Notes: generated by a model not told the origin, from the sequence alone. Shown: positions 1 through 36,334, counted from the stretch's first letter. The stretch: 64,000 nucleotides of DNA from Acholeplasmataceae bacterium (GCA_050953825.1 JBMNNF010000003.1:70767-134766), one strand, 5' to 3'. Made by a program: numbers and translations.

Positions 1-217
1 TGAAAACCATGGTTCGGAAAGATTATATTTTATTAAAACTAAAAATGGGCAAATTTATATTAAAGATGCTCATCGCCAAATTTTAAAAATTAATGATCCA
101 GTTAAATTTGTTGTCAAATTTAGAAATTCATATGGTTTTTGTGAAAATGGTGACCGAATTTATGATGAAAAAGAGGTGAGAGATGTTTATGAACAATATC
201 GATCAGATTCAAAGTAG
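1..217 (+). CDS. ABC transporter ATP-binding protein, C-terminal fragment cut by the window edge (duplicate of 12573..12789)
   Basis: Sequence matches the 3' end of the 11704..12789 CDS at offset 12572. Same frame, stop TAG at 215-217. Confidence 0.8.
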   Translation, partial: ENHGSERLYFIKTKNGQIYIKDAHRQILKINDPVKFVVKFRNSYGFCENGDRIYDEKEVRDVYEQYRSDSK

Positions 218-2468: not shown

Positions 2469-2485
2469 CAAAGGAGGAGTATTTA

Positions 2486-3523: not shown

Positions 3524-3526
3524 CAT

Positions 3527-4960: not shown

Positions 4961-4962
4961 TT

Positions 4963-15040: not shown

Positions 15041-15057
15041 CAAAGGAGGAGTATTTA

Positions 15058-16095: not shown

Positions 16096-16098
16096 CAT

Positions 16099-17532
16099 AT
16101 GAAAAAAATATTTTCTAGTTTTATAGCATTATTATTACTAATAGTTTTAGTTGGGTGTATTCAACCAACATCTGATGATATTCCCAATGGAGAAATCTTT
16201 GATGAAACTAAAACCTGGGAAATGTATGGCGATGGACATTTAGTTAATCGTGATATTGAAATTGAATATTGGCACGCTAATTCAGCACTAGATATTCAAG
16301 GTAAAACGATGGCGCGAATGGTTGAAGAATTTAATACTTACCAACAAGAAACATATCCAGGAAGTGCCATTACGGTCAAATTAACTTTTACCAATGGTTA
16401 TATTCCGATGAATCAAAAATTGCAAGCCGGTTTATTGGGTAATACCAACCCAGAAATTGCAATGGTTGGAGTTTCATCAATGGCTCTTTATCACAGTAGT
16501 GCCATTGATATGAGAGAAATTTTCACATACGATGAAATTAGAGATATTTTTCCTGGCTTTTTACAATTTGCGATGTATCGTGATAAATTTGTCGCCTATC
16601 CATATTTTGCCGCTTCCAATGTCATGGTATTAAACCGAACATTATTAAAGAGAACAGGTATGCATATTCCAACAGTTGATGAAATTGTTGCGGATCCAGA
16701 AAATTCAATTTGGACTTGGGATTATTTACGCGAAGTCTTAGAAGCGGTTCGCGCTTTACCGGATGCGAAAGAGAAAAATTTATATGGATTAGCGACTAAT
16801 GGAATTCCATTATATGAGTCATTTTTCTCACACGGAGAAGCGCCTTATACTCAAGGGGCAACCCAAGTCGCCTTTACTAAAAAAACTGCGACTAAAATCT
16901 TTAAATATTGGCAAGACATGGCTAAAGATGATTTATTTGAAAATCCAGTGATTGACCCACAACACCATAACCAAATTAAAGGTAAATATATCAACGGTCA
17001 ATATGGAATTATGATTGCCTCATCATCAATGGTGTTAGATATGCATAATTCATTAAGAGATCCAGAAACTGGTGAATTATCGTTTGAAGCTGATGTATTA
17101 CCACATCCAAAAGAAAAATACTTTTATTCTAACCACAGCGGTGGTGGGTTAATTTTATTTAATAATAAAAATCAAACTAAAAGAAGTGCCGCTGTTGAAT
17201 TTTTAAGATGGCTTCAAGCTCCTGAACAACAAGTTGAGTTTTCAACTAATGCCGGATATTTAATTACTACTTATTCTGCCCAAAATACTCAAAAGTGGAA
17301 AGATTTTACTAGAGATGTTAACCCAACGATGGATGAAGTTTTAAAGATGATGGAATTTACTCCACAAGGCGGTTTAAAATTACCAATTGGTCGAGCTAAA
17401 GGTTTAGCTGATGATGACTTTGGTAAATACTCTAAAGGTATTTTCTATGAAAACTTTAAACGTTCACCAGCTGAAGTCGTTGATGAGTGTATCCGTCGGG
17501 TTAATCAAATTTTAGATGAGAATAAGGAATAA
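16099..17532 (+). CDS. Solute-binding lipoprotein, duplicate copy
   Basis: Translation identical to 3527..4960. Confidence 0.85.
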   Translation: MKKIFSSFIALLLLIVLVGCIQPTSDDIPNGEIFDETKTWEMYGDGHLVNRDIEIEYWHANSALDIQGKTMARMVEEFNTYQQETYPGSAITVKLTFTNGYIPMNQKLQAGLLGNTNPEIAMVGVSSMALYHSSAIDMREIFTYDEIRDIFPGFLQFAMYRDKFVAYPYFAASNVMVLNRTLLKRTGMHIPTVDEIVADPENSIWTWDYLREVLEAVRALPDAKEKNLYGLATNGIPLYESFFSHGEAPYTQGATQVAFTKKTATKIFKYWQDMAKDDLFENPVIDPQHHNQIKGKYINGQYGIMIASSSMVLDMHNSLRDPETGELSFEADVLPHPKEKYFYSNHSGGGLILFNNKNQTKRSAAVEFLRWLQAPEQQVEFSTNAGYLITTYSAQNTQKWKDFTRDVNPTMDEVLKMMEFTPQGGLKLPIGRAKGLADDDFGKYSKGIFYENFKRSPAEVVDECIRRVNQILDENKE

Positions 17533-17534
17533 TT

Positions 17535-19268
17535 ATGAGACTTACAGCTACCAATGAAAAAATAACCATTTCCATTGTTGGAGCTGGTAACCGCGCTAAG
17601 GCGTATGTTGACGCCTTAGATCAGCTGTATCCTCATCAATTTGAAATTACAGCGTTATTTGAACCAGATCCCAAACGACAAAAATATTTTCAAGATAAAT
17701 ATCATATCAAAAAAGAAAATATTTTTCGTGGTTATGAAGATTTTATTAAATTAAAAAGAATTTCTGATATCGTTATTATTGCCACATTAGACAATCAACA
17801 CTATATTCCAACTATGCACGCGATTAAAGCGGGTTACGATATTATTTTAGAAAAACCGATCTCAATGTCATTAAAGGAAACCATTGAAATTGGTGAACTA
17901 GGCAAAAAACATCCAAATCAAATTATCGCAGTTTGCCACGTGTTAAGACATTCACCATTCTTTAGAAAAATTAAAGAATTACTTGATCAAAAAGTAATTG
18001 GTGATATCGTTAATTTTCAACATAATGAAAATGTCGGCTATTATCATTTCGCTCATTCATATGTTCGTGGCAATTGGCGTAATTTAAAAGTAGCGGCTCC
18101 ATTTATTGTCGCTAAGAGTTGTCATGACTTAGATATCTTATTATATCTAATCAATAAAAAATCAGTTAGATTTTCATCAATGGGGACATTATCATTTTTC
18201 ACCCATGAAAATTATAATGACGAATTGATGGCACCAAGATGTCAAGATTGTAAGATTGAAGGTGATTGCCCATATAGTGCTTTAAAGATTTACAGCGGTA
18301 AATTAATTAGAAGTGTACTATTTGATAATTCATCAGTTGAAAGATTAAAAGAAGAGTTATCAAATAGCCCTTATGGCCGATGTGTTTTCCAATCAGATAA
18401 CGATGTCGCTGATCACCAAGTTACGATTATTGAATTTGAAGATGGAGTTACCGCAACATTTAATTTATCCGCATTTACTAATAAAATTCACCGCTCATTA
18501 AAAATAATGGGAACTTATGGTGAAATTAGAGCGACTGAAGTTGGAAAAATTATTGAAGTGTGGCCATTTGGCAAAGATCCATATTATGTTGAAGTTGATG
18601 AAATTGTCGGCACTTCAAAAATATATCCAACGCCAATTTATTTGGCAGTCTTTGATCATAATAAGGATTTAGAAGTTGGCGTAAATGATATGAAAGCTTT
18701 AGTGGAATTAAACGGAGAATTTATTAGAAAGAATGTAGATTTTAAGGCTTATGATTTAGTGTTACTCGATTCTAATTTATCTCATGAAACTTTAGAATAT
18801 ATCTTTTATAATTGTGATAAACCAATTTTTGCTGAAGCGATCTCAGTTAACAAAGTGAAAAAATTGGTCCCATTTTTATCAAGAATGCATGCGATTAAAT
18901 GTAATATGTTAGAGGCACTAGCGATTACTGATAAAACCGAAAAAGATGGAGTGAGTGAAGTGATCCAAGCGATTGCCGACAAAGGAGTCAAAGAAGTATA
19001 TGTGACTGATGGGGGCCGAGGTAGTTACTTATTAAAAGATGGTAAACTTAACCATCTTCATTCAACAAAAGCGAATATCGTCAATACAACCGGTGCTGGA
19101 GATGCCTTTTTCTCTGGAGTAATTTATGCCAAAGCGTTAGGTAAAGATGAGTTAAAGTATGGTAACGCTTTAGCGAAAATTACATTAGAAAGTAATAGAT
19201 CCAATAATCCAAATTTAAATAGAAAATTATTAGAAAGTGTGGTATTAGAAAATGAAATTAGACATTAA
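17535..19268 (+). CDS. Chimeric ORF: oxidoreductase residues 1-359 fused in frame to the C-terminal ~218 aa of a PfkB-family (pseudouridine-type) kinase
   Basis: Identical to 4963..6225 up to EVDEIVG, then unrelated sequence carrying the PfkB signature [12 protein letters not shown]. It lies directly upstream of psuG. Confidence 0.75.
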
Positions 19269-21641: not shown

Positions 21642-22520
21642 ATGAAACAGGTTGATTTATCATTTCAAAGTTGTCATTGTGAATATGATGAAAGTGATGT
21701 GGTTATTTTTAGTGTGCCCCTAGATACCACTACTTCATATCGTCCAGGAACGAGATTTGCTGGTAATGCGATCAGAGTTGAATCAATTGGAATTGAGTGG
21801 TACAGTCCATATCAAGACTCAAACTTAAAAGATTTTAAGACGTGTGATATTGGCGATTTAGAATTACCAATGGGAAATGTTGACCAATCACTAAATATTA
21901 TTTATCAGACGACTCAACAACTATTAAAAGATAATAAAATACCAATGATGGTTGGTGGTGAACACCTAGCATCATATTCGGTGATTAAAGCTTTATATGA
22001 AAAATATCCCAATCTACACGTCATTCATTTAGATGCTCATACTGATTTAAGAGAAGAATTTTTAGGAATGACATTTTCTCATGCAACTTTTATGAGACAT
22101 GTTTATCAATTTTTAGGTGATGAAAGAATTTATCAATTTGGCATTCGTAGTGGCGATGAGGATGAATTTAAATGGGTTCAAGAAGGACATATTTTTCAAC
22201 AAAAATATAATTTAGCGGGACTAGATAACATAGTTACCAAATTAATGGATGTTCCAGTTTATATTACTATTGATTTAGATGTTTTAGACCCAAGTGTCTT
22301 TCCTGGAACTGGGACTCCAGAACCAGGCGGGATTACTTATCAAGAATTATTGTGGGCCTTTAAACAATTCACTAAATTAAACTATATCGTTGGTGCTGAT
22401 TTAGTTGAATTAGCCCCTAATTTAGATCATAGTGGAGTTTCCACGATAGTTGCCGCTAAAAGTTTAAGAGAAATGGTATTAATTCTACATAACAATAAAA
22501 AAAGAAGGAGTGTTAAATAA
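21642..22520 (+). CDS. speB: Agmatinase (arginase/ureohydrolase family)
   Basis: Mn-binding blocks GGEH, HLDAHTDL and DLDVLDPSVFPGTGTPEPGG. Adjacent to speA. Confidence 0.9.
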   Translation: MKQVDLSFQSCHCEYDESDVVIFSVPLDTTTSYRPGTRFAGNAIRVESIGIEWYSPYQDSNLKDFKTCDIGDLELPMGNVDQSLNIIYQTTQQLLKDNKIPMMVGGEHLASYSVIKALYEKYPNLHVIHLDAHTDLREEFLGMTFSHATFMRHVYQFLGDERIYQFGIRSGDEDEFKWVQEGHIFQQKYNLAGLDNIVTKLMDVPVYITIDLDVLDPSVFPGTGTPEPGGITYQELLWAFKQFTKLNYIVGADLVELAPNLDHSGVSTIVAAKSLREMVLILHNNKKRRSVK

Positions 22521-23047
22521 TGTATAATGAAACAATCAAGTCAATTTTAGAAAGACGTAGTGTGAGAAAATTTGAACCACGTCAAGTTAAAGATGAAGAT
22601 TTAGATTTAATCTTAAAAGCGGGAACATATGCAGCTAGTGGCAGAGGGGCTCAAGCTCCGCTAATTGTCGCAATTCAAGATCAAGAAGTAATTAAAGAAT
22701 TATCTAAAATTAATGCGAGCGTTATGGGAAGAGATACCGATCCTTTCTTTGGAGCGCCAACAGTGATAATGGTCTTAACTGATAAAGAAAGAAATACCGG
22801 GGTTGAAGATGCTAGTTTAGTTATTGGCAATATGATGTTAGCGGCTCATTCTTTAGGTTTAGGTTCTTGTTGGATTCATCGTGCGAAAGAAGCGATGGCC
22901 TATCCATATGTTCAAGAAATGTTAACTAAGTTGGGAATTGATTATACTAAATACCGTGGTGTTGGTAATATGATTTTAGGATATTCTGCTCAAGGTGAAT
23001 TAAAAGCTGCCAAGAGAAAGGATAATTATATTTATAAAATTAAATAA
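22520..23047 (+). CDS. Nitroreductase-family protein
   Basis: N-terminal ILERRSVRKF motif. Size is about 175 aa. Confidence 0.8.
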   Translation: MYNETIKSILERRSVRKFEPRQVKDEDLDLILKAGTYAASGRGAQAPLIVAIQDQEVIKELSKINASVMGRDTDPFFGAPTVIMVLTDKERNTGVEDASLVIGNMMLAAHSLGLGSCWIHRAKEAMAYPYVQEMLTKLGIDYTKYRGVGNMILGYSAQGELKAAKRKDNYIYKIK

Positions 23048-23049
23048 TT

Positions 23050-24060
23050 ATGAGAAAATACCTACTGCCTAAAGCAGGTAAATTTTATAAAGCTAATTTA
23101 CATATGCATACCACAATTAGCGACGGTAATATTGAACCAGATGAAGTTAAAAGATTATATCTGGAACAAGGTTATTCAATCGTCGCTTTTTCTGATCACG
23201 AAGTGATGGTTTCTCATCACGATTTAACTGATGATAACTTTTTAGCCATCACTTCAACTGAAATTAGTATTAATAAAAACTGGGATATTGATTTTGAATT
23301 TCAAAAAACGTTTCATTTTAATTTGTTATCAGAAGATCCATTAAAAGATTATTATCAAACATTTAGTAAAGAGGCGATGTGGCTTCCGCATTCTTTTGAC
23401 TTTATTAGTAAAAATCAACAAAAAATTGAATACGAGCGTGAATATTCAATTGATAAGATTAATGAAATGATTCGAATTTCTAACGAAGAAAATTGTTTGG
23501 TCTTATATTGCCATCCGGTTTGGTCACTTCAAGATTATTCGGACTACATTAATTTAGAAGGGTTATGGGGCATTGAATGGTTTAATACCGGCGCTAGCAG
23601 TTCGGGCTATTATGATTCAATGAAACCGATTGATGATCTATTAAGAATTGGAAAAAATGTTTATCCAGTAGCGACCGATGACGCGCACTATTTATCGGTT
23701 TGTTTTGGCGGATTTGTCATGGTAAAGGCGGAAAATTTAAAATACAATACCATTTTTAAAGCGCTAAAATCTGGTGATTTTTATTCATCAAAGAAACCCT
23801 TAATTCATGAACTTTATATTGAAGATGGTATCATCAATCTTAAATGTAGTCCAGTTAGTCAAATTGTTTTATATACTGAAAGACGTTATACTAAAAATTT
23901 AACTGGTTATCAAATGGAAGAAGCGCAAATTAATATTAATGATTATCTCAAAAAGTCATTTGAAAAAGGATGTCAACATCCATATATACGACTTACATTA
24001 ATTGATCAAGCGGGAAATAAGGCCCAAACTCGGGCTTATTACCTTGATGAATTAAGATAA
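23050..24060 (+). CDS. PHP-domain (polymerase/histidinol-phosphatase-like) protein
   Basis: NLHMHTTISDG motif near the N-terminus, with later DH and DDAH metal-ligand blocks. Confidence 0.7.
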   Translation: MRKYLLPKAGKFYKANLHMHTTISDGNIEPDEVKRLYLEQGYSIVAFSDHEVMVSHHDLTDDNFLAITSTEISINKNWDIDFEFQKTFHFNLLSEDPLKDYYQTFSKEAMWLPHSFDFISKNQQKIEYEREYSIDKINEMIRISNEENCLVLYCHPVWSLQDYSDYINLEGLWGIEWFNTGASSSGYYDSMKPIDDLLRIGKNVYPVATDDAHYLSVCFGGFVMVKAENLKYNTIFKALKSGDFYSSKKPLIHELYIEDGIINLKCSPVSQIVLYTERRYTKNLTGYQMEEAQININDYLKKSFEKGCQHPYIRLTLIDQAGNKAQTRAYYLDELR

Positions 24061-24106
24061 AAAAAGGTAAATAGGATAAAACTCCAAAGCGCATGATTGA
24101 TATGAT

Positions 24107-24206
24107 ACCTCCAAAGTAGACACATGAGATAAACAAAAAAAGTTTAGATTCATGTAGAACCTATGGTTATCCAACCGTAGGCACACACTTTGGAGGTGTC
24201 TTTTTT
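24107..24206 (+). terminator. Branched intrinsic-terminator-like structure downstream of the PHP gene
   Basis: An 11-bp closing helix (acctccaaagt 24107-24117 with actttggaggt 24187-24197) encloses two hairpins and is followed by a T-run at 24201-24206. Confidence 0.5.
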
Positions 24207-24331
24207 ATGAGTAGAAAACATAAATATAGTTAGTATTTAATAATTCTTTTATTTTCTACAATGTTCGTCATTTTCACATTATTAATATTATTGATAGATT
24301 AAATGGCATTTAAATTATATAATTGAAAAAA

Positions 24332-24424
24332 ATGAAAAAATTAAGGAAAGATATTATGATTATTGTTTACATTATAGATTCATACGGCGAGTTTTCTAAC
24401 GGAACCACAATACAGCTCACGTAG
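24332..24424 (+). pseudogene. Orphaned 5' end of the glycosyltransferase gene (first 26-27 codons), running into a stop after the junction with tuf sequence
   Basis: 24331-24411 matches 27577-27657. The reading frame then reads ...aca ata cag ctc acg TAG. Confidence 0.8.
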
Positions 24425-25404
24425 AATACGAAACTGAAAATCGTCACTACGCACACGTTGACTGCCCAGGACACGCTGACTATGTTAAAAACATGATTAC
24501 TGGTGCGGCCCAAATGGACGGCGGAATTTTAGTTGTTTCAGCAGCAGATGGTATGATGCCTCAAACTAGAGAACACGTATTATTAGCTCGTCAAGTTGGA
24601 GTACCTAAGTTAGTTGTTTTCTTAAACAAATCTGACTTAGTTGATGACGATGAATTATTAGAACTTGTTGAAATGGAAATTAGAGAATTATTATCTGATT
24701 ACGATTTCCCAGGTGATGATATTCCATTCGTAGCTGGTTCAGCACTAAAAGCTTTAGAAGGCGACCCTGTTCATGAACAAAAAATCATTGAATTAATGGC
24801 TAATGTTGACGCTTATGTTGATGAACCAATTAGAGAAACTGATAAACCTTTCTTAATGCCAGTTGAAGACGTATTTACCATTACTGGTCGTGGAACTGTG
24901 GCAACCGGCCGTGTTGAACGTGGAACTTTAAAGGTTGGAGACGAAGTTGAAATCGTTGGAATTAGACCAACTAGAAAAACAGTTGTTACTGGAGTTGAAA
25001 TGTTTAGAAAATTATTAGACTACGCTGAAGCTGGAGACAACATCGGTGCTTTATTACGTGGTGTTCCACGTGATGAAATTGAACGTGGTCAAGTATTAGC
25101 TAAACCAGGATCAGTTAAACCACATACTAAGTTCGAAGCGCAAGTTTACGTTCTTTCTAAAGAAGAAGGTGGACGTCATACTCCATTCTTCTCAAATTAT
25201 CGCCCACAATTCTATTTCAGAACTACTGACGTTACAGGTGTTATTCACTTAAAACCAGGAACTGAAATGGTTATGCCTGGAGATAATACTGAAATGATCG
25301 TTGAATTAATTCACCCAATCGCTGTTGAACAAGGTACTAAGTTCTCAATTCGTGAAGGCGGTAGAACAGTTGGTGCTGGTTCAGTAACTAAGATTATTGA
25401 ATAA
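24412..25404 (+). pseudogene. tuf: tuf fragment (3' ~83% of EF-Tu) lacking the start codon and the G1 P-loop
   Basis: Matches 34506..35498 at offset 10094, and the ORF translation is identical to the EF-Tu C-terminus. The match continues through the downstream terminator and promoter to 25550. Confidence 0.85.
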
Positions 25405-25422
25405 TTAAACTAAATCAAAAAT

Positions 25423-25449
25423 AAAAGATGCGGCGACGCATCTTTTTTT
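25423..25449 (+). terminator. Duplicate of the tuf terminator
   Basis: aaagatgcg-gcga-cgcatcttttttt, the same as 35517..35543. Confidence 0.8.
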
Positions 25450-25550
25450 GTCATATAAAGAAAAACAAATAAATTTTTTCTATTATAAGATAGAGATATG
25501 AGACGAAAACTTGACAATGTTATAACAAATGTATATACTTTTATTGAGGT

Positions 25551-27443
25551 ATTACAATTACCTCAGCCGCAACTACAGCATTTTGGAAAGGCTATAAAAT
25601 TAATGTGATTGATACTCCAGGACACGTAGATTTCACAGTTGAAGTATCTCGTTCACTAAGAGTATTAGATGGTGCAGTTACGGTTTTGGATGCTCAAGCT
25701 GGTGTTGAGCCACAAACCGAAACTGTGTGGCGTCAAGCCACAGATTATAAAGTGCCAAGAATTGTCTTTGTTAATAAGATGGATAAAATTGGCGCTGACT
25801 TCGAAAATGCAATTCAAACGATGCATAATCGTTTAGGGGTGAAAGCCTATGCGGTTCAATGGCCAATTGGCGCAGAAAACGACTTCAGTGGAATTATTGA
25901 CTTAATTACGATGAAAGCTTATCATTATGATGGCGGAATTGATGAGGAGACTACAGAAATTCCTATTCCTGCTAATTTAATTAATAAGGTTAAGGAAAAA
26001 AGAATTGAATTAATTGAGGCCATCTGTGATTTTAACGAAGAATTAATGATTATGTATCTAGAGGGGGAAGAAATCCCAGTAGAAATAATCAAAGAAACGA
26101 TTAGACAAGCAACTCTAGATGTTAAATTCTTCCCAGTATTTTGTGGGACCGCCTTTAAGAATAAAGGAGTTAAAAAAATTCTTGATGGAATTATTGACTA
26201 TTTACCAGCACCAACTGATGTTGATGGGATAGTCGGACATAAAGAAGATGGTACTCAAGTAGTGAGACTACCAAGTGATTCGGAACCATTTACTGCCCTA
26301 GCTTTTAAAGTAATGACTGACCCATACGTTGGTAAGTTAACTTTCTTCAGAGTTTATTCTGGATCAGTTAAATCAGGAAGCTATGTAAGAAATGCTTCTA
26401 AAGATACGCGCGAGCGTTTTGGTAGAATCTTACTCATGCATGCTAACCACCGTGAGGAAGTTAGCGAAGTATATGCAGGAGATATTGCCGCAGTTGTTGG
26501 TTTAAAAGATACAACCACTGGAAATACACTATGTGGGGAACGAGATGATATTATTTTAGAATCAATGATTTTCCCAGAACCAGTAATTGATATTGCGATT
26601 GAACCAAAAACTAAACAAGACCAAGATAGAATGTCAATTGCATTAGGTAAATTAGCTGAAGAAGACCCGACATTCCGCACTTATATTGACCGTGAAACCG
26701 GACAAACGATTATTGCTGGTATGGGTGAATTACACTTAGATATTATTGTTGATCGTTTACGTCGAGAATTTAGAGTTGACGCCAATGTTGCCGAACCTCA
26801 AGTATCATATCGTGAAACAATTACAACACCTGCTACTATTGAAGGAAAATTCGTTCGTCAATCGGGTGGACGCGGACAATATGGACACGTTGTTTTAGAA
26901 TTTGAACCAAATCCAGGTAAAGGTTTCCAATTCGTTGATAAAATTGTTGGAGGAGTGGTTCCAAAAGAATATATTCCAGCAGTTCAAAAAGGATTAGAAG
27001 AAGCGATGCCAAACGGAATTATTGCTGGTTATCCAGTCTTAGATATTAAAGCGACTTTAATTGACGGGTCATATCATGATGTTGACTCATCAGAAATGGC
27101 ATTTAAGATTGCGGCTTCAATGGCATTAAAAGAATTAGCTCAAAAAGGTAATCCAACCATTTTAGAGCCAATTATGAACGTTGAAGTGGTAACACCAAAT
27201 GAATATGTTGGAAACGTTATTGGTGATTTAACTAGCCGTCGTGGTCGTCTTGATAATCAAGAAGGAAGAGGCAATGCAGTGGCGATTAAAGCTTTCGTTC
27301 CACTTTCTGAAATGTTTGGTTATGCAACGGCATTAAGATCTAATACTCAAGGAAGAGCAAACTTCGTTATGCAATTTGCTCACTATGAACCAACACCGCG
27401 ACAAATTACTGATAATATCATTAAAAAACGCGGTTCTAATTAA
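25551..27443 (+). pseudogene. fusA: fusA fragment starting at codon 61, lacking the G1 P-loop. The 5' ~830 nt match fusA and the 3' ~1.1 kb is diverged.
   Basis: Offset 6740 to 32291 onward. Lines I compared are identical up to 26380, then there are many mostly synonymous differences. The longest ORF starts at GTG 25605. Confidence 0.8.
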
Positions 27444-27480
27444 TAATTAATGGTTTTTAACCATATTAATAACTAATAAC

Positions 27481-27571
27481 TTGCAAAATTAAGTAGTTTA
27501 AGATAAAATATTAAGAGTAAATGTATTAAACAAAACAAATAAAAAAGAATCTTATTTAGGAGGAAAAAATA
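27481..27571 (+). promoter_or_regulatory. Duplicated tuf promoter, 5' UTR and RBS, now upstream of the glycosyltransferase gene
   Basis: TTGCAA-17-TAAAAT and ggaggaaaaaataATG match 34223..34316, with 2 mismatches in the spacer. Confidence 0.75.
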
Positions 27572-29419
27572 ATGGCAATGAAAAAATTAAGGAAAGATAT
27601 TATGATTATTGTTTACATTATAGATTCATACGGCGAGTTTTCTAACGGAACCACAATGACAGCGGTACGCTCTAAACAAAAATTAGAAGAAATGGGCCAT
27701 GAAGTTAGAGTTGTCTCAATTAGCAATATTGAGGGAAAGGAATACTTCCAATTAGAAAAGAGAAATATCCCAATCGTCTCTTATTTTTCGGCAAAACAAA
27801 ATACATATTATGCAAAACCGGATGAAGCGGTATTTCGTAGGGCGTTTGAAGGAGCGGATGTCGTTCACTTCTTTTTTCCTTGGAAATCAGCTTTAGTTGC
27901 CATTAAAGTTGCTAGAGAAATGGGAATTGCGGTTACCGGATCGTATCACATGTGTCCTGAACACGTTGGTTATGGTGCTGGTTTTGGCAAATGGTTTGCC
28001 CCAGTAACATGGTTTTTGTATAAATTCTACAAACATAAAATTTATAAAAAAATCGATCGAATTCATTGCCCAAGTCCAGTGATGGCTAATCGGTTAAAGG
28101 AACACCGATATAAAAATATTCTACACCCAATTACTAATGGTGTTGGTCAACAATTTTTTGTTGAAGTTGAAAGACCTTATGATCCAAAAGAATTTCAAAT
28201 TTTAACGGTTGGGCGACTATCATTAGAGAAACGTCAAGAAATTTTATTAAAAGCGATAAGATACTCTAAATATAAAAATAGAATCAAACTAGTTGTTGCT
28301 GGTCAAGGACCAAAAGGTGATAAATTAAAGAAATTAGCTAAAAAATACCAACTTAATGTTGAATTTGGGTTTTATTCTCAAGATGTACTGGTTAATAAGA
28401 TTAAAGAAAGTGATTTATATGTTCATACAGCTGAAGTTGAAACCGAAGGCATTTCAGTATTAGAAGCACTTTCTGGAGGATTGGTTCCAGTATTATCTAA
28501 TACTCCGTTTAGTGCTCCTGGACAGATTTTTGCCTTAGATGAAAGAAGCTTATTTAAATTAAATGATCCAAAAGATTTAGCTAGTAAAATTGATTATTGG
28601 ATTGAACATCCAGATGAAAGACAAAAAATGAGTCGAGAATATCAAAGTTATATGGAAAACTATGATATTGATACGGCAGTTAAAAGACTTGTGGAAATGT
28701 TTAAAGCGGCAATTAATGATGAAAAATTAAAACAATTAGAAAAAACGAAAAAGAATCAAAAGTATCTAAAGAAATTAAAACCAAATAAATTAGGCCATTT
28801 AATGGTCAGAATGTCGTTTATTTTATTTTATCCATTTGTAAAATTATATTCATATTTATTTGCCGGTTTAAGGATTAATGGTAAGAAAAATTTAAGATCA
28901 GTTAAGGGTGGAGCGATCATCATTAGTAATCACGTTCATAATCTGGATGCACCAATCAATGCATGTGCAACGTATCCGAAACTTTCGGTTTATACTTCAC
29001 AACCACAAAACTTTGAACACCGAGTTTACCGACCACTAATTAGTTTCTTCGGAACAATACCAACACCAAAAACGATTGAAGAAACTAAAGTGTTTATTAA
29101 TGAAGTTTCAAGAAAAATGAAAAATGGGCGATTGGTTTTAGTTTATCCGGAAGGGAATTTAATCTATAAAAATTCTAATTTACAACCATTTAAAAAAGGA
29201 GCATTCCATGCAGCCCAAAATGCTATGGCTCCAATCATTCCCATTAGAATTAATTTTGTTAAGAGAAAAAAGAAAAACGGGAAATATAAAAAGAGAATTA
29301 TTTTAAATATTGGAAAACCAATTCAACCGAGTTACCATATGTTAAGAAGAGATAGTATTGATGATTTCATGCAAGTTTCAATTAATGCGATGGAAAGCTT
29401 AAAAGAAGTTGATGGTTAA
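27572..29419 (+). CDS. Fusion protein: GT4-family (GT-B) glycolipid-synthase-like glycosyltransferase plus a C-terminal PlsC/LPLAT-type acyltransferase domain
   Basis: GT4 E-x7-E region ETEGISVLEALSGGLVP. The acyltransferase has H-x4-D (NHVHNLD) and a VYPEGN block, with a hydrophobic segment between the domains. The first two codons (ATG GCA) derive from tuf. Confidence 0.8.
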   Translation: MAMKKLRKDIMIIVYIIDSYGEFSNGTTMTAVRSKQKLEEMGHEVRVVSISNIEGKEYFQLEKRNIPIVSYFSAKQNTYYAKPDEAVFRRAFEGADVVHFFFPWKSALVAIKVAREMGIAVTGSYHMCPEHVGYGAGFGKWFAPVTWFLYKFYKHKIYKKIDRIHCPSPVMANRLKEHRYKNILHPITNGVGQQFFVEVERPYDPKEFQILTVGRLSLEKRQEILLKAIRYSKYKNRIKLVVAGQGPKGDKLKKLAKKYQLNVEFGFYSQDVLVNKIKESDLYVHTAEVETEGISVLEALSGGLVPVLSNTPFSAPGQIFALDERSLFKLNDPKDLASKIDYWIEHPDERQKMSREYQSYMENYDIDTAVKRLVEMFKAAINDEKLKQLEKTKKNQKYLKKLKPNKLGHLMVRMSFILFYPFVKLYSYLFAGLRINGKKNLRSVKGGAIIISNHVHNLDAPINACATYPKLSVYTSQPQNFEHRVYRPLISFFGTIPTPKTIEETKVFINEVSRKMKNGRLVLVYPEGNLIYKNSNLQPFKKGAFHAAQNAMAPIIPIRINFVKRKKKNGKYKKRIILNIGKPIQPSYHMLRRDSIDDFMQVSINAMESLKEVDG

Positions 29420-29444
29420 AACTAGAAAAGTATAAAAATTACCA

Positions 29445-29477
29445 AAACCTCAATTAAAGAAAATGTTGAGGTTTTTT
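29445..29477 (+). terminator. Intrinsic terminator after the glycosyltransferase gene
   Basis: 9-bp stem aaacctcaa/ttgaggttt followed by a T-run. Confidence 0.8.
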
Positions 29478-29488
29478 ATATAAAAAAA

Positions 29489-29566
29489 TTACCAGTTAGG
29501 TAATTATATTCTTGACAAGGGTAATGGGTTATTATATAATAGGTGTATAAATTACCACTTAGGTAA
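29489..29566 (+). promoter_or_regulatory. Toxin-antitoxin promoter bracketed by two TTACC-N5-GGTAA operators
   Basis: TTGACA 29512-29517, 17-nt spacer, TATAAT 29535-29540. Inverted repeats at 29489-29503 and 29552-29566. Confidence 0.7.
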
Positions 29567-29580
29567 GAAAAGAGAGTTTA

Positions 29581-29928
29581 ATGAAAATTGAATATGACAA
29601 CAAGAAAGTAAAAACTCTCTTTGAAAATTTTGATTTAATGGGAAAAGAGGTTGGCTACGAACTTGCTAGAAGAATCAAATTAAGATTCGAACAATTGAGG
29701 GCTGCTGAAACTTTCTATGATTACTTGCAAACGCGTTTGGGGGGACCCCATCGACTTAGTGGAGATAAAAATGATTTATATGCTATCAATGTTACTAGAA
29801 ATGTAAGATTGATTGTCAAACCTAATTCAGAAGATTTGAGTCATGAAGGATTAATGAAGTGTAAGATTGTAATAATTAAAGGAGTAGAGGATTATCATGG
29901 TAGCAAAACAACAACATACATCCCCTGA
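29581..29928 (+). CDS. higB: HigB-like (RelE/ParE superfamily, plasmid-killer type) toxin
   Basis: Collinear with the HigB family as I remember it: K.L...F, L..L..A, H.L.GD, a Y-I-V block, R-I-F/V, and C-terminal EDYH. Confidence 0.7.
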   Translation: MKIEYDNKKVKTLFENFDLMGKEVGYELARRIKLRFEQLRAAETFYDYLQTRLGGPHRLSGDKNDLYAINVTRNVRLIVKPNSEDLSHEGLMKCKIVIIKGVEDYHGSKTTTYIP

Positions 29929-30970
29929 TGTTTTTTTAATTCATCCGGGTGAAACTATTTATGAGGTAATACAAGATAGGAATATTTCGCAAAAAGAACT
30001 AGCGATAAGGACAGGATACACGGAAAAACACATATCAACTATTATAAATGGACAAAAAAATATATCGGCGGAATTTGCTAAAAAATTAGAATATGCTCTA
30101 AATATACCGGCATCTTTTTGGCGTAATCTCCAAACGAATTATGATTTGGAAGTTGTTGAGTTTAATGAAAAACATAGTATTACCGAAAAAGAAAGTCAAA
30201 TAGCAAAAGAGATCAAACAAACGGTTGAACTTATAACGGGAAAATCTTTCAAATCGAATCAAGGAATAGGACCTGTATATGAAATGAGAAAATTTTTAGG
30301 AGTTAGTAATTTATGCTCGATATTAACTTTAAACCCACCTAGATTTAGAGCTAAGTTTCAAAAGAATACAAGCGAACATATAATGTCGACTTGGCAATAT
30401 TTATGTGGAAAAAAAGTAGAAAATCAAACAGATGCTCCCTTAAATATTGGAAAACTTATCCAAAGTATTGACGAGATTAAACAAATAATGCATGAACCAG
30501 ACTCAACAAAACATAAAAAAATGATTCAAGAAGTTTTAAATAGGAGCGGTGTGTTATTTACAGTTGAAAAACACGGAAAAAATACGCCAATTAATGGCCT
30601 AACGGCTAAAACTAAAAATAATCAGGTGATGATTGCACTTACACTTAGATTAAAATATGTAGATGTATTTTGGTTTACTCTATTTCACGAAATTGGTCAT
30701 GTGATTGCTAAAGACTATTTAAGAGATCAATCTATTTGGGATGAGATTGATAAAATTGAAGAACGAGCTAATAAATTTGCTGCTGATGTACTGATCGATT
30801 CCCAAAAATACAAAATTTTTATTGCCAGAAAGGATTTTAGTAATTCCGCGATAGAAAACTTTGCAAAAGAGAATAATGTATTACCGACCATCGTCTACGG
30901 CAGATTAATGCATGACGGAATAAAACCTTGGTATTCTTTTAATAGAGATACTTATGAATGGATAAGGTAA
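29897..30970 (+). CDS. HigA-type XRE HTH antitoxin fused to an ImmA/IrrE (M78, COG2856) zinc-metallopeptidase domain
   Basis: N-terminus IHPGETIYEVIQDRNISQKELA...NGQKNIS...FWRNLQ matches HigA. The C-terminal domain has HEIGH. It overlaps the toxin gene by 32 nt. Confidence 0.75.
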   Translation: MVAKQQHTSPDVFLIHPGETIYEVIQDRNISQKELAIRTGYTEKHISTIINGQKNISAEFAKKLEYALNIPASFWRNLQTNYDLEVVEFNEKHSITEKESQIAKEIKQTVELITGKSFKSNQGIGPVYEMRKFLGVSNLCSILTLNPPRFRAKFQKNTSEHIMSTWQYLCGKKVENQTDAPLNIGKLIQSIDEIKQIMHEPDSTKHKKMIQEVLNRSGVLFTVEKHGKNTPINGLTAKTKNNQVMIALTLRLKYVDVFWFTLFHEIGHVIAKDYLRDQSIWDEIDKIEERANKFAADVLIDSQKYKIFIARKDFSNSAIENFAKENNVLPTIVYGRLMHDGIKPWYSFNRDTYEWIR

Positions 30971-30993
30971 TAATTTAAGATAAATTAAACATT

Positions 30994-31031
30994 AAACCTC
31001 AACTAAGAAAAATGTTGAGGTTTTATTTTTT
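30994..31031 (+). terminator. Intrinsic terminator after the TA cassette (near-copy of 29445..29477)
   Basis: Same aaacctcaa/ttgaggttt stem. 28 of 31 nt are identical to the upstream terminator. Confidence 0.8.
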
Positions 31032-31050
31032 CAAATTAAAAGTGAAAAAA

Positions 31051-31079
31051 TTGACAATAAAACTAAGTTATTATATAAT
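31051..31079 (+). promoter_or_regulatory. str operon promoter
   Basis: TTGACA 31051-31056, 17-nt spacer, TATAAT 31074-31079. Confidence 0.7.
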
Positions 31080-31081
31080 AT

Positions 31082-31161
31082 ACGTGTTGCGCGAATTGCG
31101 CAATAAAATCAATATTGAATTAACGGCTTTAATAAGCCAATAGAAGCATAATAAAACACGT
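31082..31161 (+). promoter_or_regulatory. Structured 5' leader of rpsL
   Basis: Closing helix acgtgtt (31082-31088) with aacacgt (31155-31161) encloses the hairpins ttgcgc-gaatt-gcgcaa and ggctt-taata-agcc. Confidence 0.45.
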
Positions 31162-31194
31162 GGATGCGTGAATATAAGAAAAGGAGACTGAAAT

Positions 31195-31608
31195 ATGCCA
31201 ACAATTCAACAATTAGTTACTAAAGGTCGTCAATCAAAAACGACAAAATCTAAATCTCCGGCATTAGGATATGGTTATAATAGTATTCAAAAGAAAACTA
31301 GTTATTATGACTCGCCACAAAAAAGAGGAGTTTGTACTAGAGTTACGACAATGACACCTAAAAAACCGAACTCAGCTTTAAGAAAATATGCGAGAGTTAG
31401 ATTATCAAACGGTACCGAAGTTACCGCATATATTCCTGGAATCGGACACACATTACAAGAACACAGTGTCGTTTTAATTCGTGGTGGTAGAGTTAAAGAC
31501 TTACCAGGGGTACGTTACCACATCGTAAGAGGAACTCTAGATACAGCTGGAGTTCAAAATAGGAAACAAGCCCGTTCTAAATACGGTGCTAAAAGACCTA
31601 AAAAATAG
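31195..31608 (+). CDS. rpsL: 30S ribosomal protein S12
   Basis: MPTIQQL..., [10 protein letters not shown], and conserved gene order. Confidence 0.98.
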
Positions 31609-31627
31609 GAAGGAAAGGTGAAGATAC

Positions 31628-32098
31628 ATGCCAAGAAAAGGACACGTAGTTAAAAGAGATGTATTACCTGACCCGATTTACAACTCTAAATTAGTGACAA
31701 AAGCTATCAATGCAATTATGCTAGATGGTAAAAAAGGTACAGCTCAAAGTATTTTATACGGAGCATTAAGAAAAGTTGAAAATGAAACTGGTCGTGATGG
31801 TTTAGAAGTTTTCGAACAAGCCCTAAACAATATTATGCCAGTTATTGAAACAAGATCTAGAAGAATTGGTGGGCAAAACTATCAAGTACCAACGGAAGTT
31901 AGACCAGCGAGAAAACAAGCTCTTGGTTTAAGATGGTTAATACAATACGCTAGACTAAGACACGAAAAAACAATGGTAGATCGATTAGCCAGAGAAATTT
32001 TAGACGCTTCAAACGGCACGGGTGCGGCAGTTAAGAAGCGTGATGACGTTCATAGAATGGCTGAAGCTAACAAAGCGTTTGCTCACTACCGTTGGTAA
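31628..32098 (+). CDS. rpsG: 30S ribosomal protein S7
   Basis: MPRKG..., LPDP.Y, ending HYRW. Confidence 0.98.
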
Positions 32099-32110
32099 GG
32101 AGCTAAAATT

Positions 32111-34186
32111 ATGCCAAGAGAAACGAGCTTAGAAAAAACTAGAAATATTGGCATCATGGCGCATATTGACGCTGGTAAAACGACAACTAGCGAAAGAATT
32201 TTATATCATACTGGTAAAATTCATAAAATGGGCGAAACCCATGATGGAGCCGCTCAAATGGACTGGATGGAGCAAGAACAAGAACGAGGTATTACAATTA
32301 CCTCAGCCGCAACTACAGCATTTTGGAAAGGCTATAAAATTAATGTGATTGATACTCCAGGACACGTAGATTTCACAGTTGAAGTATCTCGTTCACTAAG
32401 AGTATTAGATGGTGCAGTTACGGTTTTGGATGCTCAAGCTGGTGTTGAGCCACAAACCGAAACTGTGTGGCGTCAAGCCACAGATTATAAAGTGCCAAGA
32501 ATTGTCTTTGTTAATAAGATGGATAAAATTGGCGCTGACTTCGAAAATGCAATTCAAACGATGCATAATCGTTTAGGGGTGAAAGCCTATGCGGTTCAAT
32601 GGCCAATTGGCGCAGAAAACGACTTCAGTGGAATTATTGACTTAATTACGATGAAAGCTTATCATTATGATGGCGGAATTGATGAGGAGACTACAGAAAT
32701 TCCTATTCCTGCTAATTTAATTAATAAGGTTAAGGAAAAAAGAATTGAATTAATTGAGGCCATCTGTGATTTTAACGAAGAATTAATGATTATGTATCTA
32801 GAGGGGGAAGAAATCCCAGTAGAAATAATCAAAGAAACGATTAGACAAGCAACTCTAGATGTTAAATTCTTCCCAGTATTTTGTGGGACCGCCTTTAAGA
32901 ATAAAGGAGTTAAAAAAATTCTTGATGGAATTATTGACTATTTACCAGCACCAACTGATGTTGATGGGATAGTCGGACATAAAGAAGATGGTACTCAAGT
33001 AGTGAGACTACCAAGTGATTCGGAACCATTTACTGCCCTAGCTTTTAAAGTAATGACTGACCCATACGTTGGTAAGTTAACTTTCTTCAGAGTTTATTCT
33101 GGATCAGTTAAATCAGGAAGTTATGTGAGAAACGCATCAAAAGATACAAGAGAACGCTTTGGTAGAATCTTATTAATGCACGCTAATCACCGTGAGGAAG
33201 TTAGCGAAGTCTACGCTGGTGATATTGCGGCAGTTGTTGGACTGAAAGAAACCACAACGGGGAATACTTTATGTGGTGAAAGAGATGATATCATTTTAGA
33301 ATCAATGATCTTCCCAGAACCAGTAATTGATATTGCAATTGAACCAAAAACCAAGCAAGACCAAGACCGGATGTCAACCGCTTTAACTAAACTAGCTGAA
33401 GAAGACCCAACATTTAGAACTTATATTGACAAGGAAACTGGACAAACGATTATTGCTGGTATGGGTGAATTACACTTAGACATTATTGTTGACCGTTTGA
33501 AAAGAGAATTTAAGGTTGAAGCTAATGTCGCTGAACCTCAAGTCTCTTATCGTGAAACAATTACTGTTCCAGCGACGATTGAAGGCAAGTTTGTCCGTCA
33601 ATCAGGTGGACGTGGTCAATATGGGCACGTTATTATCGAATTTGAGCCAAACCCAGGTAAAGGATTTGAATTCGTTGATAAAATTGTTGGTGGCGTTGTT
33701 CCAAAAGAATATATTCCAGCAGTTCAAAAAGGTTTAGAAGAAGCCATGCCTAATGGAATTGTCGCTGGTTATCCAGTATTAGACATTAAAGCTACTTTAA
33801 TTGATGGATCATATCATGATGTTGACTCATCAGAAATGGCCTTTAAAATTGCTGCATCAATGGCGTTAAAGGAATTATCTGAAAAAGGTAAACCAACTAT
33901 TTTAGAGCCAATTATGACAGTTGAAGTTGTTACACCGAATGATTATGTCGGTAACGTGATTGGCGATTTAACTAGTCGCCGTGGCCGATTAGAACACCAA
34001 GAGGGACGAGGTAATGCCGTCGCAATTAAAGCGTTCGTTCCACTTTCTGAAATGTTTGGCTATGCGACAGCCTTACGTTCTAACACTCAAGGAAGAGCTA
34101 ACTTCGTTATGCAATTCGCTCACTATGAGCCAACACCACGCTCAATTACTGATGATATTGTTAAAAAGCGCGGAGCAAAAGTATAA
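32111..34186 (+). CDS. fusA: Elongation factor G
   Basis: [21 protein letters not shown], full length 691 aa. Confidence 0.98.
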
Positions 34187-34222
34187 AATAGTAGCGTAAT
34201 TGGGACTTATATAACTAATAAC

Positions 34223-34251
34223 TTGCAAAAGTTAGTAGTTTAAGATAAAAT
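34223..34251 (+). promoter_or_regulatory. Internal promoter for tuf
   Basis: TTGCAA 34223-34228, 17-nt spacer, TAAAAT 34246-34251. Confidence 0.55.
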
Positions 34252-34313
34252 ATTAAGAGTAAATGTATTAAACAAAACAAATAAAAAAGAATCTTATTTA
34301 GGAGGAAAAAATA

Positions 34314-35498
34314 ATGGCAAAGAAAAAATTTGAAAGAACCAAACCACACGTAAATATTGGTACAATTGGTCACGTTGACCATGGTAAAACTACATTAACT
34401 GCAGCTATTACTTCGGTATTAGCTAAAAAAGGATTATCTGAAAAGAAAGACTATTCACAAATTGACGGTGCTCCAGAAGAAAAAGAAAGAGGAATCACTA
34501 TCAATACAGCTCACGTAGAATACGAAACTGAAAATCGTCACTACGCACACGTTGACTGCCCAGGACACGCTGACTATGTTAAAAACATGATTACTGGTGC
34601 GGCCCAAATGGACGGCGGAATTTTAGTTGTTTCAGCAGCAGATGGTATGATGCCTCAAACTAGAGAACACGTATTATTAGCTCGTCAAGTTGGAGTACCT
34701 AAGTTAGTTGTTTTCTTAAACAAATCTGACTTAGTTGATGACGATGAATTATTAGAACTTGTTGAAATGGAAATTAGAGAATTATTATCTGATTACGATT
34801 TCCCAGGTGATGATATTCCATTCGTAGCTGGTTCAGCACTAAAAGCTTTAGAAGGCGACCCTGTTCATGAACAAAAAATCATTGAATTAATGGCTAATGT
34901 TGACGCTTATGTTGATGAACCAATTAGAGAAACTGATAAACCTTTCTTAATGCCAGTTGAAGACGTATTTACCATTACTGGTCGTGGAACTGTGGCAACC
35001 GGCCGTGTTGAACGTGGAACTTTAAAGGTTGGAGACGAAGTTGAAATCGTTGGAATTAGACCAACTAGAAAAACAGTTGTTACTGGAGTTGAAATGTTTA
35101 GAAAATTATTAGACTACGCTGAAGCTGGAGACAACATCGGTGCTTTATTACGTGGTGTTCCACGTGATGAAATTGAACGTGGTCAAGTATTAGCTAAACC
35201 AGGATCAGTTAAACCACATACTAAGTTCGAAGCGCAAGTTTACGTTCTTTCTAAAGAAGAAGGTGGACGTCATACTCCATTCTTCTCAAATTATCGCCCA
35301 CAATTCTATTTCAGAACTACTGACGTTACAGGTGTTATTCACTTAAAACCAGGAACTGAAATGGTTATGCCTGGAGATAATACTGAAATGATCGTTGAAT
35401 TAATTCACCCAATCGCTGTTGAACAAGGTACTAAGTTCTCAATTCGTGAAGGCGGTAGAACAGTTGGTGCTGGTTCAGTAACTAAGATTATTGAATAA
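34314..35498 (+). CDS. tuf: Elongation factor Tu
   Basis: [18 protein letters not shown], 394 aa. Confidence 0.98.
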
Positions 35499-35516
35499 TT
35501 AAACTAAATCAAAAAT

Positions 35517-35543
35517 AAAAGATGCGGCGACGCATCTTTTTTT
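35517..35543 (+). terminator. tuf intrinsic terminator
   Basis: aaagatgcg-gcga-cgcatcttt stem followed by a T-run. Confidence 0.85.
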
Positions 35544-35604
35544 GTCATATAAAGAAAAACAAATAAATTTTTTCTATTATAAGATAGAGATATGAGACGA
35601 AAAC

Positions 35605-35633
35605 TTGACAATGTTATAACAAATGTATATACT
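35605..35633 (+). promoter_or_regulatory. mazEF promoter with a palindromic operator candidate
   Basis: TTGACA 35605-35610, 17-nt spacer, TATACT 35628-35633. The perfect palindrome TGTTATAACA (35612-35621) lies in the spacer. Confidence 0.6.
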
Positions 35634-35650
35634 TTTATTGAGGTGTTAAT

Positions 35651-35890
35651 ATGAAAACTCAAATTAAAAAAATAGGAAACAGCAAAGGAATTATTATTCC
35701 TGCAGCAATTATAAAAACATTAGGATTAGAAGAACAAGATAGTTTATTGTTAGAGGTTCAAGGAGATTCGATAATTATTAAAAAAGAGAAGAAAACACCA
35801 ATGACACTAATGCAACTATTTGAGGAATACGATGGTAATTATGACTATGATATCGTTTTTGATGATGCAGTAGGAGATGAAGTATGGTAA
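35651..35890 (+). CDS. mazE: MazE/AbrB-fold (SpoVT-AbrB) antitoxin
   Basis: KIGNSKGIIIPAAI swapped-hairpin motif, acidic C-terminus, overlaps the toxin gene by 7 nt. Confidence 0.8.
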   Translation: MKTQIKKIGNSKGIIIPAAIIKTLGLEEQDSLLLEVQGDSIIIKKEKKTPMTLMQLFEEYDGNYDYDIVFDDAVGDEVW

Positions 35891-36210
35891 AACAAGGAGA
35901 TATTATTTTAGTTGATTTCAGTCCAACTATTGGTTCCGAACAAAGAGGTAGAAGACCTGCGGTTGTAGTAAGCAATAATGATTTTCAAAGGGTAACGAAG
36001 AAGTTTGCTATTGTGGTGCCAATTACTTCAACGCGAAGAAATAAATTTCCTCTTCATGTTGGGCTTGATAATAGAACAAATACCCAAGGCGATATAATGT
36101 GTGAACAAATTAAAATGATTGATACCGAAGCTAGAAATGTCCAAGTAATCGAATCTATTCCCAACGATATATTGGAAAAGATTTTAAATTTAGTAACTTT
36201 ATTTTTTTAA
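35884..36210 (+). CDS. mazF: MazF/PemK-family endoribonuclease toxin
   Basis: GDIILVDFSPTIGSEQRGRRPAVVVS and the VVPITS block. Confidence 0.9.
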   Translation: MVKQGDIILVDFSPTIGSEQRGRRPAVVVSNNDFQRVTKKFAIVVPITSTRRNKFPLHVGLDNRTNTQGDIMCEQIKMIDTEARNVQVIESIPNDILEKILNLVTLFF

Positions 36211-36334
36211 TCTATTTGCATAGAAATTCTATAATCAGATATTATCTATTCAAATAATAAGTTATGATAAAATATTAATTGAAAAAGATGTTTATTACTT
36301 GTCATCTACAAGTAACGTAAAGAAAGGTAAAGTT

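Follow-up and report, generated by a model that had tools for sequence, protein, structure and literature searches.

Introduction

Human disease loci and laboratory Escherichia coli have provided many documented cases of complex rearrangements with several junctions at microhomologies, and those of the fork stalling and template switching (FoSTeS) type were reportedly described by Lee, Carvalho and Lupski in 2007. The locus considered here is a 3246-nt block (positions 24412-27657) in a 64,000-nt stretch of DNA from an uncultured Acholeplasmataceae-like bacterium (GCA_050953825.1 JBMNNF010000003.1:70767-134766), where truncated copies of tuf and fusA lie upstream of an intact glycosyltransferase (GT) gene. 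The whole stretch is referred to as the window, with positions counted from its first letter, and its organism as species A. We hold, with moderate confidence, that the block is a genuine and very recent structural variant, formed by a microhomology-mediated duplication-insertion of the template-switch type, which also carries one patch of interspecies recombination and exchanges the promoter and ribosome-binding site of the GT gene.

Several groups of described systems offer a comparison. FoSTeS and microhomology-mediated break-induced replication (MMBIR) include the complex lac amplicons of E. coli, which gave this pattern its first support (Hastings et al., 2009; PMC2621351). Promoter capture through microhomology-mediated deletion or duplication has also been described in E. 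coli (PMC6614815), where the rnk-citT fusion of the long-term experiment is a bacterial example and junction microhomologies of 3-12 bp have been found (PMC6614815; PMC11111574). Interspecies mosaic alleles are known from rpoB of Neisseria (PMC6321871), and mosaic outcomes of transformation from Bacillus subtilis (PMC13344027).

Layout and junctions of the block

All pieces of the block lie on the plus strand, in direct orientation, and it is bounded by an 81-nt direct repeat whose left copy (24331-24411) is 100% identical to its right copy (27577-27657) by self-BLAST and by an exact string test, the right copy being the start of the intact GT gene. Of its 81 nt, 25 are 5' untranslated region, with the ribosome-binding site AAGGAAAG, and the remaining 56 are the start of the GT coding sequence. 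In the original prediction, made from the sequence alone, the block had been placed inside the 5' end of the GT gene and the repeat had been read as GT nucleotides 1-80; the 81-nt identity is exact, but the duplication leaves the GT gene intact with the block upstream, and the repeat is part untranslated region and part true coding sequence.

Behind the left repeat copy, the block continues with a tuf copy running from codon 65 through the stop codon, the terminator and the mazE promoter, in which 24408-25550 equals 34502-35644 over 1143 nt at 100% identity (exact string test). This is followed by a fusA piece, from codon 61 through to the ATG-GCA of tuf, where 25546-27588 aligns with 32286-34330 by self-BLAST. 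Both pieces correspond to a native donor region on the same strand (32111-35650), which is supported by its open reading frames (ORFs) and by the Joint Genome Institute (JGI) contigs L004 and L063, and which holds fusA (32111-34186), a spacer, tuf (34314-35498), the terminator and the mazE promoter. The donor segments lie 3-10 kb from the block, and the block as a whole, apart from 186 missing nt, is native 32291-35644 in circularly permuted order.

The three junctions fall within 3.2 kb, and each was placed by a three-line alignment of the block against both parents. At junction 1 (J1), the GT sequence is joined to tuf codon 64/65 through the microhomology CAAT (24408-24411). Junction 2 (J2) joins the region of the mazE ribosome-binding site to fusA codon 59/60 through GAGGT (25546-25550), followed by TTA beyond one mismatch. 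Junction 3 (J3), which is found in the window's contig only, has the microhomology AA (27577-27578), followed beyond one mismatch by GAAAAAATT, so that nine of the next ten positions also agree. The first base past the respective microhomology is phase 0 of tuf codon 65 at J1 and of fusA codon 61 at J2. In this AT-rich region, a random join would show at least 4 nt of microhomology with a probability of 0.024-0.026 and at least 5 nt with one of 0.008-0.009, and since the probabilities per join are thus about 0.025 and about 0.009, J1 and J2 together are well beyond chance.

No ORF for a transposase or an integrase was found in the block by the ORF and Pfam scan, the sole ORFs there being the tuf and fusA fragments, and self-BLAST found no terminal inverted repeats bounding it. 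Insertion of a transposon, an insertion sequence or an integron cassette was rejected on these two grounds and on the length of the duplication, which is 81 nt. The order of GT start, tuf, fusA and complete GT gene had been described correctly in the original prediction, as self-BLAST and the exact string tests confirm; its junction identities (CAAT, GAGGT, and AA with nine further matches) are reproduced by the three-line alignments, and its direct orientation and lack of mobile-element genes by the ORF and Pfam scan together with self-BLAST.

Filled and empty sites in other assemblies

J1 and J2 recur, with identical sequence, in JGI contigs L001/L061 (3300060804) and L062 (3300060680), L001 and L062 being short-read contigs from two separate JGI metagenome assemblies of two samples. 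L001 and L062 both stop at 25672, having entered the fusA repeat by exactly 127 nt, and L063 ends at 32412, the equivalent position of the native copy, while L004 ends at 34628, 127 nt into the tuf repeat. We infer from these four contig ends, each 127 nt inside a predicted repeat, the behaviour of a de Bruijn graph with k=127 at true repeats. L004 also runs straight from fusA into tuf, crossing native 34233-34320 unbroken; this is expected if the foreign tract described below is present, because the stretch shared by the fragment and the native copy would then be only 87 nt long, which is less than 127.

An empty site, in which the PHP gene is followed by the GT gene, has been found in the Logan contigs L002 (SRR31061296) and L003 (ERR14232076), which equal the window minus 24412-27657 at 2371 of 2371 and 5077 of 5078 bases, respectively. 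The arrangement expected in relatives by the original prediction, with the PHP gene leading directly into the GT gene, is therefore seen in these contigs from two other samples. A chimeric assembly had been named there as the chief alternative. For J1 and J2 this is largely excluded, because both recur in two JGI assemblies and the exact empty site is seen; in addition, their overlaps are 4-5 nt long and the window contains no Ns. A literature search on the sample accessions found no paper.

All contigs of species A, which come from at least eight sequencing runs, are about 100% identical to the window, and the block is a presence/absence polymorphism in this near-clonal population. The event is very recent, because the copied parts are 100% identical to their sources, the foreign tract being an exact match to contigs of another species. 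Within the PHP gene, a single-nucleotide polymorphism (SNP) at 23275 has A in the window, L001 and L002 and G in L062, which is filled, and in L003, which is empty. All four combinations of this SNP with presence or absence of the block are thus seen, for one site and in consensus contigs, which may mean that recombination has taken place or that the block has repeatedly been lost, in a precise manner, through the 81-nt repeats.

An interspecies tract in the fusA copy

The fusA piece is only 91% identical overall to native fusA, and this divergence is confined to its middle. Its 5' part (25551-26380, codons 61-336) is of the genome's own type, with 25546-26380 (835 nt) equal to 32286-33120 at 100%. 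At the other end, 27492-27578 equals native 34234-34320 at 100%; the last part of it (27520-27578), present in the window's contig only, is the own-type end of the spacer and holds the ribosome-binding site of tuf, AGGAGG (27558-27563), and the tuf ATG GCA (27572-27577). Between these, 26381-27491 is 82-91% identical to the native gene, or about 15% divergent.

This divergent stretch belongs to a foreign tract (26361-27519) that runs from about fusA codon 330 to the stop codon and through 76 nt of spacer, and that has a 1159-nt exact match in two contigs, L058 (JGI Ga0209510_1000407) and L059 (Logan ERR4811461), of another Acholeplasmataceae species, here called species B. A third contig of species B, L043 (Ga0208195_1000659), is 97-99% identical to the tract. 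In a three-way alignment, the part specific to species B is 26381-27491, flanked by crossover intervals common to both species at 26361-26380 (20 nt) and 27492-27519 (28 nt). The tract is in register with the native gene throughout, including the indel-rich 45 nt past the stop codon. It differs from native fusA at 141 codons, and because 117 of these differences are synonymous and 24 non-synonymous (and conservative), its source was a functional orthologue and not a product of decay.

Species B comes from metagenomes of the anaerobic-digester type, and its GTDB representative is the metagenome-assembled genome (MAG) 'Acholeplasmataceae bacterium AS06rmzACSIP_177'. It is 66-67% identical to the window in the PHP protein, 75-87% in the 5' half of fusA and about 92% in tuf. 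Scans of genomes and metagenomes with the PHP protein found no conspecific contigs, the closest relatives showing 66-67% amino acid identity; it was these scans that brought species B to light. In all three samples (L058, L059 and L043), species B holds the tract in its native fusA-tuf context. Over about 10 kb of comparable sequence, exact runs between the two species elsewhere reach at most 74 nt. A 1159-nt exact run on such a background, in register and with a donor that has the sequence in its native context, is the pattern of an interspecies mosaic.

The fusA piece had earlier been taken as a copy from the nearby str operon. This holds for the 835 nt at its start and for 27492-27578, which are of own type, but not for the approximately 1.1 kb that is 99-100% identical to fusA of species B and only about 85% identical to the native gene. 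Because this 1.1-kb stretch is species-B-like, at least one further recombination event, or another source, is needed.

The GT gene and its expression signals

The GT gene (27602-29419) encodes a GT4 glycosyltransferase fused to a PlsC-type acyltransferase, a protein of 605 aa with Pfam matches to Glyco_transf_4, Glycos_transf_1 and Acyltransferase; no NCBIfam equivalog was found for it at cut-off, and it is regarded here as a membrane-lipid glycosyltransferase. Its homologues are about 605 aa long and start with MIIVY, which places the true start at ATG 27602 in the homologue alignment. Upstream, an in-frame ATG GCA ATG would allow a 615-aa form with an N-terminal extension of 10 aa.

The intergenic region between the PHP and GT genes (24061-24330), which is identical in the empty-site contigs L002 and L003, holds the original promoter candidates of the GT gene, two promoter-like sites found by consensus scan at 24273-24300 and 24291-24318. 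It also holds a strongly structured RNA-like element (24104-24206), in which a long outer stem encloses two hairpins and is followed by a U-run. Folding of 24075-24215 gives a minimum free energy of -45.4 kcal/mol with z = -6.66, and none of 200 shuffled sequences was equally stable. This structure could be an elaborate terminator of the PHP gene or an unrecognised leader of the GT gene; within 22000-37000 no Rfam family reached the gathering threshold, and the PHP-GT spacer gave no credible match.

In the filled site, the left 81-nt copy is fused out of frame to tuf and continues for four more codons before a stop, giving a 30-residue translation. The old promoter candidates now read a stub of 22-30 codons, then the tuf fragment, which is without its P-loop, and then the copied predicted terminator of tuf. 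That terminator, predicted to be intrinsic (25423-25446), lies in the copy of the tuf 3' flank (25405-25550, identical to native 35499-35644) together with a copy of the mazE promoter (25511-25539). The latter, TTGACA-17-TATACT, matches the consensus at 11 of 12 positions, ends 7 nt before J2, and points at the fusA fragment, the spacer and the GT gene, which lies 2 kb downstream.

A second candidate, TTGCAA-17-TAAAAT (27481-27509), was found by consensus scan with 9 of 12 positions in the fusA-tuf spacer and is a candidate promoter of tuf; 63 nt now separate it from the new start codon of GT downstream, and this stretch is conserved between species A and B, the rest of the spacer being divergent. 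The AGGAGG and ATG GCA of tuf are fused in frame with the GT gene, 24 nt upstream of its own start. An intact GT gene thus stands directly behind a foreign candidate promoter and translation start, which is the structure of a promoter and ribosome-binding-site capture.

From this arrangement, the GT gene would appear to be cut off from its own promoter and placed under transcription signals of the mazE and tuf types and under the ribosome-binding site of tuf, a replacement that the original prediction did not mention. Such an exchange probably changes GT expression and is likely to raise it, and the promoter swap is likely to be the main effect of the block.

The tuf and fusA fragments

The tuf fragment (24412-25404) comprises codons 65-394 and the stop codon and, by exact identity and Pfam, is without G1-G3 including the P-loop; the fusA fragment is without G1 and G2, again including the P-loop. 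The Pfam match to GTP_EFTU begins at profile position 86 of 188 in the former and at 73 of 188 in the latter, which agrees with the earlier statement that both GTPase fragments lack their P-loops and look non-functional. The tuf fragment has an ORF of 303 aa from ATG 24493 and the fusA fragment one of 612 aa from GTG 25605, and no Shine-Dalgarno sequence was found ahead of either start. A functional EF-Tu or EF-G paralogue was rejected, as the G domains are truncated, no convincing translation starts are present and the copies are identical to their sources. Both fragments are taken to be non-functional by-products, whose ORFs would still be open only because they are new.

Origin of the block

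The junctions are clustered in cis, derive from nearby templates and show short microhomology with no long homology, as in rearrangements of the FoSTeS and MMBIR type. The simplest route would be one replication episode with three template switches of this type within 8 kb. In such an episode, the nascent strand would leave the GT gene at nucleotide 56 of its coding sequence via CAAT and then read along tuf, beginning at codon 65 and carrying on past the terminator and the mazE promoter. It would then switch back via GAGGT to fusA codon 61, copy through the spacer to the ATG-GCA of tuf, and switch back once more via AA to a point 25 nt upstream of the GT start, which would yield the 81-nt duplication and an intact GT gene. 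A template-switch or microhomology-mediated origin had been suggested in the original prediction, and it is supported by the direct copies and the 2-5 nt junctions, although the str operon turns out not to be the sole source.

The foreign tract would be accounted for by one homeologous recombination of imported species-B DNA into the fusA copy, anchored in the shared 20 and 28 nt, with the import striking the dispensable copy and not the essential native gene. Other conceivable sources of the tract are the native fusA of a sister strain, a second fusA of species-B type in the genome, and a switch to a foreign template in the same episode.

Several points weigh against this account. J3 and the foreign tract appear in a single contig, the 187,403-nt NCBI contig from which the window is taken. 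When the 615- and 605-aa GT forms, the 612- and 395-aa forms of the fusA product (the 395-aa one being the predicted contig-edge form) and the native 394-aa EF-Tu were looked up by exact match, no contig was returned; a 613-aa GT form returned only the empty-site Logan contig L003 and no JGI contig; and protein searches with the full-length GT and with its first 150 aa returned only the window's own singleton. The JGI samples may belong to the same project as the NCBI contig, in which case the assemblies are independent but perhaps not the biology. A fusA copy of species-B type outside the window could have been the donor of the tract, and we know of no DNA-uptake route for this organism. One event and successive events yield the same sequence picture and cannot be told apart. 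The evidence consists of assembled contigs and sequence comparison, and the promoter calls are consensus matches only.

The best surviving rival, which we nevertheless regard as unlikely, is that the same product was built stepwise and not in one template-switching episode. A tandem duplication from fusA codon 61 to the tuf flank would create J2, a larger duplication from the GT gene to the second tuf ATG would create J3, a deletion from GT nucleotide 56 to tuf codon 65 would create J1, and the leftover J2 would collapse by homologous recombination; in a variant, a circularised 3.35-kb fusA-tuf segment would integrate. The circular permutation suits this order, as it makes the block a contiguous piece of a tandem duplication of the native 32291-35644 segment, and that duplications occur in this genome is shown by another one, a perfect tandem duplication whose period is 12,572 nt. 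On the other side, four events would all have to be fixed without any point mutation in 3.2 kb, and no contig shows an intermediate: J2 is not seen at the native locus (L004), nor is a full-length first copy.

Somewhat more doubtful is a partial artefact, in which J1 and J2 are real and the species-B tract, J3 or both come from mis-assembly, from polishing with reads of a co-occurring relative, or from chimeric molecules. The want of an independent contig for J3 and the tract favours it, as do the fragmentation of the JGI assemblies between 25672 and about 29400 and the 100% identity of the tract to a species from similar habitats, possibly from the same sample. However, the shared stretches of 20 and 28 nt are too short for graph or overlap chimeras; where a de Bruijn graph uses a k of 21 or more, 20 nt in common are not enough to connect two paths. 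Polishing would not yield a clean 1.1-kb tract in register in one copy only, the indel-rich 45 nt included, and the unbroken passage of L004 over native 34233-34320 fits the presence of the tract. Moreover, the block must rejoin the GT gene somehow, and the microhomology of J3 is of the same style as that of J1 and J2.

We see a rather small chance that the source of the block, copied in a single step, was the str operon of a sister strain with the species-B tract already in its native fusA, and that ordinary homologous recombination within the species later exchanged either the block or the native fusA. The tract would then be explained without recombination into a pseudogene, and the four combinations of SNP 23275 with the block hint at recombination or recurrent loss; however, no contig shows the tract in native fusA (L004), and two recombination events are called for, as opposed to one under the template-switch reading with a single imported patch, in a population that is otherwise about 100% clonal.

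An equally small chance is given to a bolder form of the template-switch reading, in which a single break-induced or template-switching episode took imported DNA of another species as a further template and switched five times, at three microhomologies and at two homeologous stretches of 20-28 nt, and in which the product was then kept because the GT gene had been rewired onto the expression signals of tuf. If true, this would be a natural adaptive capture of a promoter and ribosome-binding site, together with incorporation of foreign DNA by replicative template switching, in an uncultured relative of the Mollicutes.

That the whole block is an assembly or library chimera present in no cell is very improbable. 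The conservation of tuf and fusA, the metagenomic setting and the existence of empty-site contigs speak for it, but J1 and J2 are identical in three assemblies, overlaps of 4-5 nt cannot join graph paths, each predicted repeat has contig ends exactly 127 nt inside it, and the window is free of Ns.

Neighbouring loci and other repeats

The tandem duplication with the 12,572-nt period mentioned above appears as a perfect 6038-nt repeat, in which window positions 1-6038 equal 12573-18610 (100%) at a spacing of 12,572 nt; it resembles a tandem duplication with a first copy that extends back beyond the start of the window. At the 6038/6039 junction a GFO_IDH_MocA-PfkB fusion gene is cut short, being 420 aa long at 4963-6225 as opposed to 577 aa at 17535-19268. 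Position 18611, where this 12.5-kb duplication ends, lies exactly 127 nt past the start of L062, so the repeat end is a graph branch in the L062 sample too. This is a second very recent duplication in the genome.

In the spacer between the GT gene and a toxin-antitoxin-like pair, 29445-29541 is a diverged counterpart (about 80% identical) of 30994-31080, the stretch ahead of rpsL that holds a terminator hairpin and the promoter TTGACA-N17-TATAAT. It would stem from an earlier duplication of str-operon signals at this locus. In species B (L058 10994-11430, and L043), only a small ORF separates the PHP gene from rpsL-rpsG-fusA-tuf, so that both the GT gene and the pair of a 115-aa protein and a HigA-like HTH-peptidase_M78 protein (window 29581-30970) are missing from this locus. 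Either the GT gene and the HTH-peptidase_M78 pair were inserted between the PHP gene and the str operon in the species-A lineage, or they were deleted in species B.

The Logan contigs L003, L064, L065 and L066, assembled with k=31, end at window 31145-31173 within the rpsL leader, at a 46-nt exact run common to species A and the L043-type relative; a close relative may co-occur in those samples, though the hint is weak. Further along, a 4188-aa ORF (43530-56096) is made up of numerous internal repeats with 70-80% identity among themselves (43872-55668 by self-BLAST) and probably encodes a giant repetitive surface protein.

Significance and comparison with known systems

Events of this kind are rarely caught fresh in wild bacteria with the filled site, the empty site and all donors at 100% identity. 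On the template-switch reading, the locus shows that kilobases of housekeeping-gene debris can arise in one step, and that a neighbouring gene can come under new expression signals as a result. The locus is also an example of how DNA imported from another species can be preserved in a dispensable gene fragment and be absent from the essential native copy. In practice, such fragments of the marker genes tuf and fusA can mislead strain typing, phylogenies built on markers and quality checks of MAGs.

The block resembles FoSTeS and MMBIR products in its clustered breakpoints, its microhomologies of 2-5 nt, its templates within about 8 kb and its gain in copy number, as well as in the lack of long homology and of mobile-element machinery. 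It differs from them in its setting, a wild uncultured bacterium related to the Mollicutes as opposed to human disease loci or laboratory E. coli, in the direct orientation of the whole block, in the interspecies tract of one segment, and in that an origin by a single event would here be a deduction from the product. As in the rnk-citT promoter capture, a duplication junction sets an intact coding sequence behind a foreign promoter; unlike rnk-citT, the block also captures a ribosome-binding site and a start codon (the in-frame ATG-GCA), its signals come from tuf and mazE, and the effect on expression is a prediction.

Like the interspecies mosaic alleles, the fusA piece holds a kilobase tract in register, with about 100% identity against a background divergence of about 15% and with short identical bounds, whereas the recipient here, which is unusual, is a truncated, non-functional duplicate, so that no selection on the allele is implied. 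Duplicates of the tufA/tufB type and EF-G paralogues are likewise second copies of tuf and fusA sequence in one genome; unlike these, both copies here are 5'-truncated with no G1 P-loop, have no convincing starts and are identical to their sources. The block is a fresh natural case of a known mutational process and not a new kind of system.

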